Assembly: GCF_053078305.1 (NCBI RefSeq)
Contig: NZ_CP166879.1
Reading direction: 5' to 3' (one strand)
Length of the DNA stretch: 64,000 bases
Below, in pieces: positions 33,272 to 34,095 of this stretch (positions within the stretch are counted from its first letter, which is position 1; every line of letters begins with the position of its first letter). The position numbers and the translations under genes are program-made. The notes under the pieces are model-generated. The model ran no database searches. It was given only the letters and a program-made list of their open reading frames with translations, and was not told where the DNA came from.

Positions 33272-33609
33272 TGAAACTGAGCGAAAAACAACAACTGTTT
33301 GCCGTCATGATTGCCGATCTCATCCACTGGGCACAGGAGCACGGCTATCGCCTGACCTTCGGCGAGGCATACCGCACGCCGGAGCAGGCCGCACTGAATG
33401 CGAAAAGCGGAAAAGGCATTCGTAACAGCCTTCACACGCTGCGCCTCGCGGTGGACTTCAACCTGTTCATTAACGGCAAATACCAGGCCGACACCGACGC
33501 CTACAGGCCGCTGGGGGAATACTGGGAATCCATCGGCGGCACATGGGGCGGGCGCTTCAGCCGGGCAGACGGCAATCATTTCAGCCTTGAGCACAACGGG
33601 GTGAAATGA
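33271..33609 (+). CDS. Endolysin, peptidase M15-like (L-alanyl-D-glutamate / D-Ala-D-Ala peptidase fold)
   Basis: 112 aa; His/Asp metal-ligand-like pattern (H...DxxH...H) ending HFSLEH; lies in lysis cassette; 1-nt overlap (TGATG) with methylase. Confidence 0.6.
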   Translation: MKLSEKQQLFAVMIADLIHWAQEHGYRLTFGEAYRTPEQAALNAKSGKGIRNSLHTLRLAVDFNLFINGKYQADTDAYRPLGEYWESIGGTWGGRFSRADGNHFSLEHNGVK

Positions 33610-33992
33610 TGAAACAGCTGGCGGGCTGCCTGGTGATCCTCTTTGCCGCCATGTGGGCGGGCTGGCTGGCCCATGACTGGCATGACGCCAGGGTGGCGCT
33701 TGCCGAACAGGAAGCCATGGAAGCCACGCGACGGGCGGTGACAGAAGCCGGGCAGCAGTCCGCCCGCATACTGGAAAAAAGGCTGGAGGCGTTAAAGGGC
33801 AATGAAATTCACACTGAACGCGTTATTCACACGGAAACCGTCCGCCCGGTATTCCGCAATGTGTGCGCTACTGATGATTACGTCCGGCTGTTCAACGCCC
33901 GTGCTGAAGCCGCTGAACGTACCCTGGCAGGAAAACCAGCTGACGGAATGCCCGAAGACACTGCCGAGACTGGCAGGCCCGACAGGCGCTGA
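33606..33992 (+). CDS. i-spanin (Rz-like)
   Basis: 128 aa; N-terminal TM (LAGCLVILFAAMWAGWLA) followed by charged coiled-coil-like periplasmic part. Confidence 0.6.
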   Translation: MMKQLAGCLVILFAAMWAGWLAHDWHDARVALAEQEAMEATRRAVTEAGQQSARILEKRLEALKGNEIHTERVIHTETVRPVFRNVCATDDYVRLFNARAEAAERTLAGKPADGMPEDTAETGRPDRR

Positions 33993-34095
33993 TTTTGATG
34001 CGGCACTGCGAACCCTCACGAGCCGCTACACCGAATGCGCCGCCAGGCATAACAGCCTGGTGGAAACCATACGAAACACGGAGAAACTGCAATGA
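33859..34095 (+). CDS. o-spanin (Rz1-like lipoprotein) overlapping the 3' part of the Rz-like gene in another frame
   Basis: Lipobox-like LMITSGC after short hydrophobic signal; Pro-rich mature part; track ORF 33802..34095. Confidence 0.55.
   Translation: MCALLMITSGCSTPVLKPLNVPWQENQLTECPKTLPRLAGPTGADFDAALRTLTSRYTECAARHNSLVETIRNTEKLQ

Follow-up and report, generated by a model that had tools for sequence, protein, structure and literature searches.

The stretch at 33606..34095 of the window (the whole 64,000-nucleotide piece of DNA that was analysed) encodes, with a probability of about 0.9, an overlapped two-component spanin that closes the lysis cassette of an Escherichia coli prophage of the P2 family (Peduoviridae), with the ATG at 33802 as the most likely start codon of the o-spanin. 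The assignment of spanin function to the pair rests on homology and topology. The pair is real but ordinary: overlapped spanins of this homology are already known, since the homologous pair of Cronobacter phage ESSI-2 has been curated (Kongari 2018, PMC6139136). The two genes and the DNA that they share are as follows.

33606..33992, + strand: i-spanin gene, ATG start, 128 amino acids, TGA stop

33802..34095, + strand: o-spanin gene, ATG start, 97-amino-acid precursor giving a predicted 68-amino-acid mature lipoprotein

33802..33992, + strand: dual-coding segment of 191 nucleotides, i-spanin residues 66-128 and o-spanin residues 1-63

Both open reading frames lie where the original prediction of an overlapping Rz/Rz1-type pair had put them (33606-34095), and they are in different frames; in the open reading frame listing of the window the o-spanin frame is +1 relative to that of the i-spanin. 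The o-spanin starts inside the i-spanin gene, as had been proposed, has 191 nucleotides in common with it and ends 103 nucleotides beyond its TGA, close to the predicted overhang of about 100 nucleotides. At the left edge, an ATGA at 33606..33609 holds the stop of the endolysin gene and the start of the i-spanin gene, while at the right edge a second ATGA (34092..34095) holds the stop of the o-spanin gene and the start of the tail chaperone gene. The latter junction is kept in five of the eight lineages compared below. A fusion of the i and o frames by +1 frameshifting was considered, and no supporting evidence was found.

The i-spanin matched the PHROG 1152 family of 'Rz-like spanin' proteins (E 5.5e-31), matched no family in Pfam or NCBIfam and is 35-61% identical to its homologues in seven other lineages. 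Hydrophobicity, the structure model and the eight-lineage comparison all point to a single N-terminal transmembrane domain with the remainder of the protein in the periplasm, the topology expected of an i-spanin.

33618..33674, + strand: i-spanin transmembrane segment, about residues 5-23, LAGCLVILFAAMWAGWLAH

The Kyte-Doolittle mean over 15 residues peaks at 2.19, from residue 5. The hydrophobic segment is preceded by Lys3, is kept in the eight lineages, with G19 and W20 invariant, and is helical in the AlphaFold2 model. This model has helices at residues 2-65 and 90-108, a linker at 66-89 and a disordered tail, an arrangement that is indicative only because confidence is low (pLDDT 64.6), and at that low confidence it agrees with the helical two-helix periplasmic domain of an i-spanin. 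The tail (residues 110-128; window 33933-33992) is absent in the L008, L009 and L016 lineages, in which the protein ends at SGKxxN, and shows poor conservation among the lineages that keep it. Co-encoded with this tail is the o-spanin motif LTxCPxxLPRLxGxTG, the best conserved part of the o-spanin. As the stop of the i-spanin varies in position, the length of the overlap varies too, from 140 to 191 nucleotides.

The o-spanin matched PHROG 2425 (E 2e-22), the family that holds it and which carries no function label, and PHROG 456, labelled 'Rz-like spanin' (E 1.5e-5). Its matches to Pfam LysC and NCBIfam P2_Rz1 (E 1.2e-3) were below the curated cut-offs. A first, word-indexed protein-database search with the 97-amino-acid open reading frame returned one near-identical entry of 78 amino acids; the family became visible only by an exhaustive profile search (E up to 0.001), which gave 198 clusters, with 150 representatives listed. 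The N-terminus of the protein has the features of a lipoprotein precursor.

33802..33888, + strand: lipoprotein signal peptide, residues 1-29, with a basic n-region MKFTLNALFTRKPSAR and a 13-residue h-region YSAMCALLMITSG

33871..33891, + strand: lipobox region LMITSGC, with predicted lipidation site Cys30 (codon 33889..33891) and Ser31 at +2

The lipobox LMITSGC named in the original prediction was located at residues 24-30 of the 97-amino-acid open reading frame (nucleotides 33871..33891). The sequence MKFTLNALFTRKPSARYSAMCALLMITSG followed by C satisfies a PROSITE-type lipoprotein rule, and cleavage is predicted between G29 and C30. With Thr at -3 (TSGC), the lipobox departs from the strict consensus, [LVI][ASTVI][GAS]C. 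The TSGC tetrad is found in other members of the family too, and atypical lipoboxes are documented among spanins (PMC6139136). The lipobox Cys is invariant across 76 aligned family members. Among the 150 representatives listed from the 198 clusters, Cys occupies the aligned lipobox position in 120 and is one residue out of register in four, while the other 26 start downstream; it is present wherever the N-terminus is included. At +2, the residue across 120 family members is S, T, A, K, G, Q, I, L, N, F or H and never Asp, and the Ser of the o-spanin is likewise compatible with sorting to the outer membrane, for which the criterion is that Asp is not at +2. The two further cysteines are also widely kept (C50 in 143 and C79 in 142 of the 150 listed representatives).

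An AlphaFold2 model of the o-spanin, built from the 76-sequence alignment, has a pLDDT of 87.2 and shows a helix for the signal peptide, an extended linker and two further helices, one short and one long (residues 62-96). The C-terminus (HNSLVETIRNTEKLQ) is hydrophilic and the signal peptide is the sole hydrophobic peak. Having no C-terminal membrane segment, the protein is therefore not a unimolecular spanin of the T1 gp11 type, and a separate membrane-anchored partner is present. A PDB sequence search with the family profile found no homologue of the o-spanin, its weak matches being mostly to N-terminal lipoprotein signal regions (BamE, BamD, CsgG and RcsF), and Foldseek with the o-spanin model found no significant fold match, only generic coiled-coil matches. 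As predicted structures, the models of the o- and i-spanins fit the topology of a spanin.

Interpretation of the pair as part of a lysis cassette, as suggested earlier, agrees with its position immediately downstream of the holin and M15 endolysin genes. The genes of the cassette, its neighbours and the landmarks of the prophage are listed below.

32224..32529, + strand: holin, start of the cassette (Phage_holin_3_2, E 1.2e-19; PHROG 175 holin, E 5.7e-31)

32519..33271: DNA methyltransferase (N6_N4_Mtase), between holin and endolysin and overlapping both

33271..33609, + strand: M15-family peptidase endolysin (Peptidase_M15_4, E 3.4e-10; PHROG endolysin families; RefSeq 'M15 family metallopeptidase')

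34092..34367, + strand: tail assembly chaperone (Phage_TAC_10, E 3.8e-31)

13264..14271: integrase

30611..31756: sheath-like DUF2586 protein

31728..32219: HP1 Orf24-type tail tube

In gene content, the region 13264-44400 of the window is that of a P2-family (Peduoviridae) prophage, as genes were also found for a gpA-type replication protein, portal, terminase, gpO scaffold and P2-type capsid, and baseplate and fibre genes lie downstream of the lysis cassette. A tRNA-Ser gene at 61225-61312 is well outside the prophage region. Among 5,426 complete E. coli genomes, 11 contain the cassette at 97.5-99.5% identity and a twelfth gives a partial match. In the phage collection, megablast with 32200..34400 as the query gave no match, and relatives were seen at the protein level only. 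A scan of 31500..35000 for promoters and terminators yielded chance-level scores, with neither a separate o-spanin promoter nor a P2-like attenuator evident, which fits a single late transcript.

Two features of the neighbouring genes may be mentioned. The methyltransferase gene is missing from phages SI7 and YenM324 and from contigs L005 and L006, and in L003, a 97-99% identical prophage, bases 32571-33270 are cleanly absent and only the first 52 or so nucleotides of the gene are kept; the gene seems to be an accessory one that has been inserted and is carried in the late lysis operon. The chaperone gene finishes with TTA AAA AAC TGA (window 34355-34555), and within these codons is the slippery heptamer A_AAA_AAC, kept in seven relatives. 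The -1 frame of the gene is open to 34555 and includes the open reading frame 34418..34555, a separate 'DUF6890 family protein' in RefSeq. A -1 programmed frameshift is classic in tail chaperones (E/E' of P2, G/GT of lambda), and the heptamer looks like one that is unannotated here.

In the two RefSeq (PGAP) copies inspected, the i-spanin is a 'hypothetical protein' and the o-spanin is absent, so the warning that gene callers easily miss such a gene was borne out in both. The o-spanin open reading frame exactly fills the 'gap' of 100 nucleotides that RefSeq leaves from the hypothetical protein to the chaperone gene. For the o-spanin there is a single database protein, truncated at its start (78 amino acids). 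Among the 150 listed representatives of the family, 26 start past the lipobox Cys and in about 27 others it is preceded by at most ten residues; about one-third of those listed thus have mis-called starts, at or beyond the lipobox, and therefore no usable signal peptide. In Yersinia phage vB_YenM_324 (YenM324; OM095401.1 17301-17489, L014 2585-2773) the coding sequence annotated as 'O-spanin' begins at a Met past the lipobox Cys, and the annotated protein is therefore without signal peptide and lipidation site; the open frame reaches an upstream GTG at L014 2483. A survey of spanins found o-spanin coding sequences to be missing in 196 genomes and mis-started in 64 (Kongari 2018, PMC6139136).

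An open +1 frame alone is weak evidence of a second gene because the frame stays open in 27% of 20,000 synonymous recodings of the i-spanin. A hydrophobic stretch together with a lipobox appeared in 19 of the 20,000 recodings. When a loose lipoprotein-signal criterion was applied to the 430 stop-to-stop segments of at least 60 amino acids in the window, six qualified, and the o-spanin is the only one of these that adjoins an endolysin.

Conservation across lineages is the decisive evidence for the o frame. The comparison covered five viral contigs (L005-L009, with i-spanins 43-58% identical to that here) and phages SI7, YenM324 and ESSI-2, all of which have identical gene order, an intact +1 open reading frame and the lipobox Cys, and keep the o-spanin motifs CPxxLPRLxGxTG and CAARHN. 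Across eight lineages, with spanins 35-61% identical, the o frame is open and carries the lipobox Cys and two further Cys; these three cysteines and the CAARHN motif are invariant, and the arrangement is overlapped in all eight (overlaps of 140-191 nucleotides). Loss of the lipobox or disruption of the frame in homologues, either of which would tell against the pair, was thus found in none of the eight lineages when the conservation of both frames was checked.

Substitution patterns agree with this. Read only as a contrast between single- and dual-coding parts, because pS values of 0.5-0.9 are saturated between diverged lineages, pN was 0.34 and pS 0.77 in the o-only part (103 nucleotides), pS of the i frame was 0.53 in the overlap against 0.70 in the single-coding part and pS of the o frame was 0.34 in the overlap against 0.77 in the single-coding part. 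Protein identity was 0.53 in the o-only part compared with 0.39 in the i-only helix, and the o frame reached its highest identity (0.68) opposite the part of the i-spanin tail that varies or is missing; along the dual-coding segment, conservation switches between the i and o frames. In near-identical copies both frames are intact and both of the o-only substitutions (n = 2) are synonymous in the o frame. These comparisons indicate that selection acts on the o frame. At 33840-33895 of the window, the i-spanin motif NVCATDDYVRLF (residues 85-96, the most conserved) shares nucleotides with MCALLMITSGC, the h-region and lipobox of the o-spanin, and conservation peaks here in both frames (mean pairwise identity 0.76 and 0.60).

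Translation of the o-spanin most likely starts at ATG 33802, a codon kept in seven of the eight lineages, the eighth (L009/YenM324) having a GTG candidate. A possible ribosome-binding element precedes it.

33785..33789, + strand: Shine-Dalgarno-like GGAGG, 12 nucleotides upstream of the o-spanin ATG, read from the sequence

The 12-nucleotide spacing is long. An element of GGAG type is found 9-12 nucleotides upstream in most relatives that have the conserved ATG; as the element lies inside the i-spanin coding sequence, its conservation is ambiguous. In SpaninDB, the entry for ESSI-2 uses the equivalent upstream ATG (99 amino acids), with GGAGG marked.

Three other readings of these data may be weighed. 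That the +1 open reading frame is a non-coding by-product of the i-spanin followed by a short spacer, with the 128-amino-acid protein as the only product, is scarcely credible. It draws on the fact that the o-spanin is uncalled in the two RefSeq annotations inspected, on the survival of the overlap frame in 27% of synonymous recodings and on the abundance of alternative-frame open reading frames of more than 100 amino acids in the GC-rich window, but it has to account for a frame open across eight lineages at 35-61% spanin identity, with its three Cys and CAARHN invariant, for a 103-nucleotide 'spacer' that evolves like coding sequence in the o frame, for 198 homologous clusters, for a confident structure prediction (pLDDT 87) and for an o-frame signal peptide that is very improbable by chance. 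A genuine spanin pair in which the o-spanin starts at the internal ATG 33859 (MCALLMITSGC..., 78 amino acids) is unlikely. From that start, only ten residues without a basic n-region would precede the Cys and the lipoprotein rule fails; there is no Shine-Dalgarno element upstream of 33859, and its Met is Phe in three of the eight lineages, whereas the upstream ATG is kept in seven of eight and is the start given for the ESSI-2 o-spanin in SpaninDB. These points outweigh the facts that the single nr/GenBank protein for this open reading frame is the 78-amino-acid form from 33859 and that internal Met starts are called for many database relatives.

The remaining alternative concerns function: the two products could be envelope proteins of another role, such as lysis timing or lipoprotein-mediated superinfection exclusion, and not take part in disruption of the outer membrane. 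Spanin defects are masked in ordinary laboratory media, and the P2 record still carries the descriptions 'nonessential; affects timing of lysis' and 'regulation of lysis' for lysB and lysC. Such a role is nevertheless very improbable, since a membrane-anchored helical protein and an outer-membrane lipoprotein encoded right after the endolysin are the defining signature of a spanin, the lipoprotein was never in a partner-independent context among the relatives examined, and lysB/lysC of P2 now count as an overlapped spanin that has been tested by experiment (PMC6139136).

An overlapped spanin translated from ATG 33802 would be expected to act as do lambda Rz/Rz1, T4 PseT.3/PseT.2 and P2 LysB/LysC, work on which is summarised in PMC6139136. 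By analogy with these systems, the i-spanin would be anchored in the inner membrane, while the o-spanin would be lipidated at Cys30 and directed by the Lol pathway to the outer membrane, and the two would bind each other across the periplasm. The conserved periplasmic cysteines (C87 of the i-spanin, C50 and C79 of the o-spanin) may form disulfides. Once the holin had released the endolysin and the cell wall was cut, the complexes would be free to fuse the inner and outer membranes, completing lysis.

It is a tentative and rather doubtful suggestion that the widespread family (ESSI-2, SI7, 9NA and distant relatives) represents a structurally distinct class of o-spanin, not proline-rich, unstructured and Rz1-like but with a folded module made up of a CPxxLPRLxGxTG loop and a 35-residue helix, pinned by two conserved Cys. 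The encoding of signal peptide and lipobox on the nucleotides of NVCATDDYVRLF might then lock the overlap and shape the evolution of both proteins. If this were true, the family would be a good model for the limits that dual coding sets on evolution, as well as for a way of fusing membranes that differs from lambda's.

The practical value of the pair is for annotation, as corrected entries would make the lysis cassette complete in a small group of prophages of the P2 family. Knowledge of spanins is unchanged, the omission of overlapped pairs by gene callers having already been documented (Kongari 2018, PMC6139136).

Set against the criteria for overlapped two-component spanins (Summer 2007; Kongari 2018, PMC6139136), the pair has these expected properties: the overlapped-class architecture, an SPII-type signal with the lipobox Cys, the position in the cassette and homology to curated spanins (PHROG 1152 and the ESSI-2 pair in SpaninDB). 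Overlapped pairs are the largest class of spanins, accounting for 228 of 528 two-component systems (PMC6139136). The closest curated relative is that of ESSI-2 (Peduoviridae, Seongnamvirus), with i- and o-spanins 35% and 38% identical to those here. It has the same overlapped +1 architecture, an equivalent ATG with GGAGG, a lipobox and two further Cys, and it too follows an M15-type endolysin, between tail tube and tape-measure genes. However, the ESSI-2 i-spanin has 110 amino acids and no C-terminal tail, so that the overlap is 140 nucleotides rather than 191, the lipobox is LSAC instead of TSGC, and the cassette is without the methyltransferase.

The closest sequenced phages are Salmonella phage SI7 (Irrigatiovirus) and Yersinia phage vB_YenM_324 (Tresduoquattuorvirus). 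The i- and o-spanins of SI7 are about 61% identical to the pair here. Both phages share the order sheath, tube, holin, M15 endolysin, i-spanin, o-spanin, chaperone and tape measure, and neither has a methyltransferase between holin and endolysin. The o-spanin of SI7 is unannotated, whereas the YenM324 pair is annotated as I-spanin and O-spanin.

The overlap had been likened to that of lysB/lysC in P2, a comparison that stands for the architecture, while similarity in sequence is at most remote (LysC) or undetectable (LysB). In P2, the LysC gene begins within that of LysB, in its +1 frame, and extends beyond the LysB stop into the following gene. When P2 LysC is aligned with the o-spanin, the lipobox Cys and the two other conserved Cys all correspond (BLASTP E 8e-6 over 61 residues; hhalign probability 47%, E 1.9e-4). 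The o-spanin scores below the cut-offs of the P2 LysC family models, with 19.2 bits against a gathering threshold of 27 for PF23793 and 19.0 against 27 for NF038368 (P2_Rz1). BLASTP of LysB against the i-spanin found no significant similarity (E 0.18 over 31 residues). The cassettes also differ in position and content: that of P2 lies between X and R and has a lysozyme-type endolysin and LysA, whereas here it lies between the tail tube and chaperone genes and has an M15 peptidase.

With Rz/Rz1 of lambda, the pair has in common an inner-membrane protein and an outer-membrane lipoprotein, as predicted here, encoded by shared DNA in the +1 relation and with periplasmic cysteines. It is not an embedded spanin of the lambda type, as the o-spanin stop is 103 nucleotides beyond that of the i-spanin, while Rz1 is fully inside Rz. 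Furthermore, lambda Rz1 is short, proline-rich and largely unstructured, whereas the o-spanin described here has a predicted 35-residue C-terminal helix.
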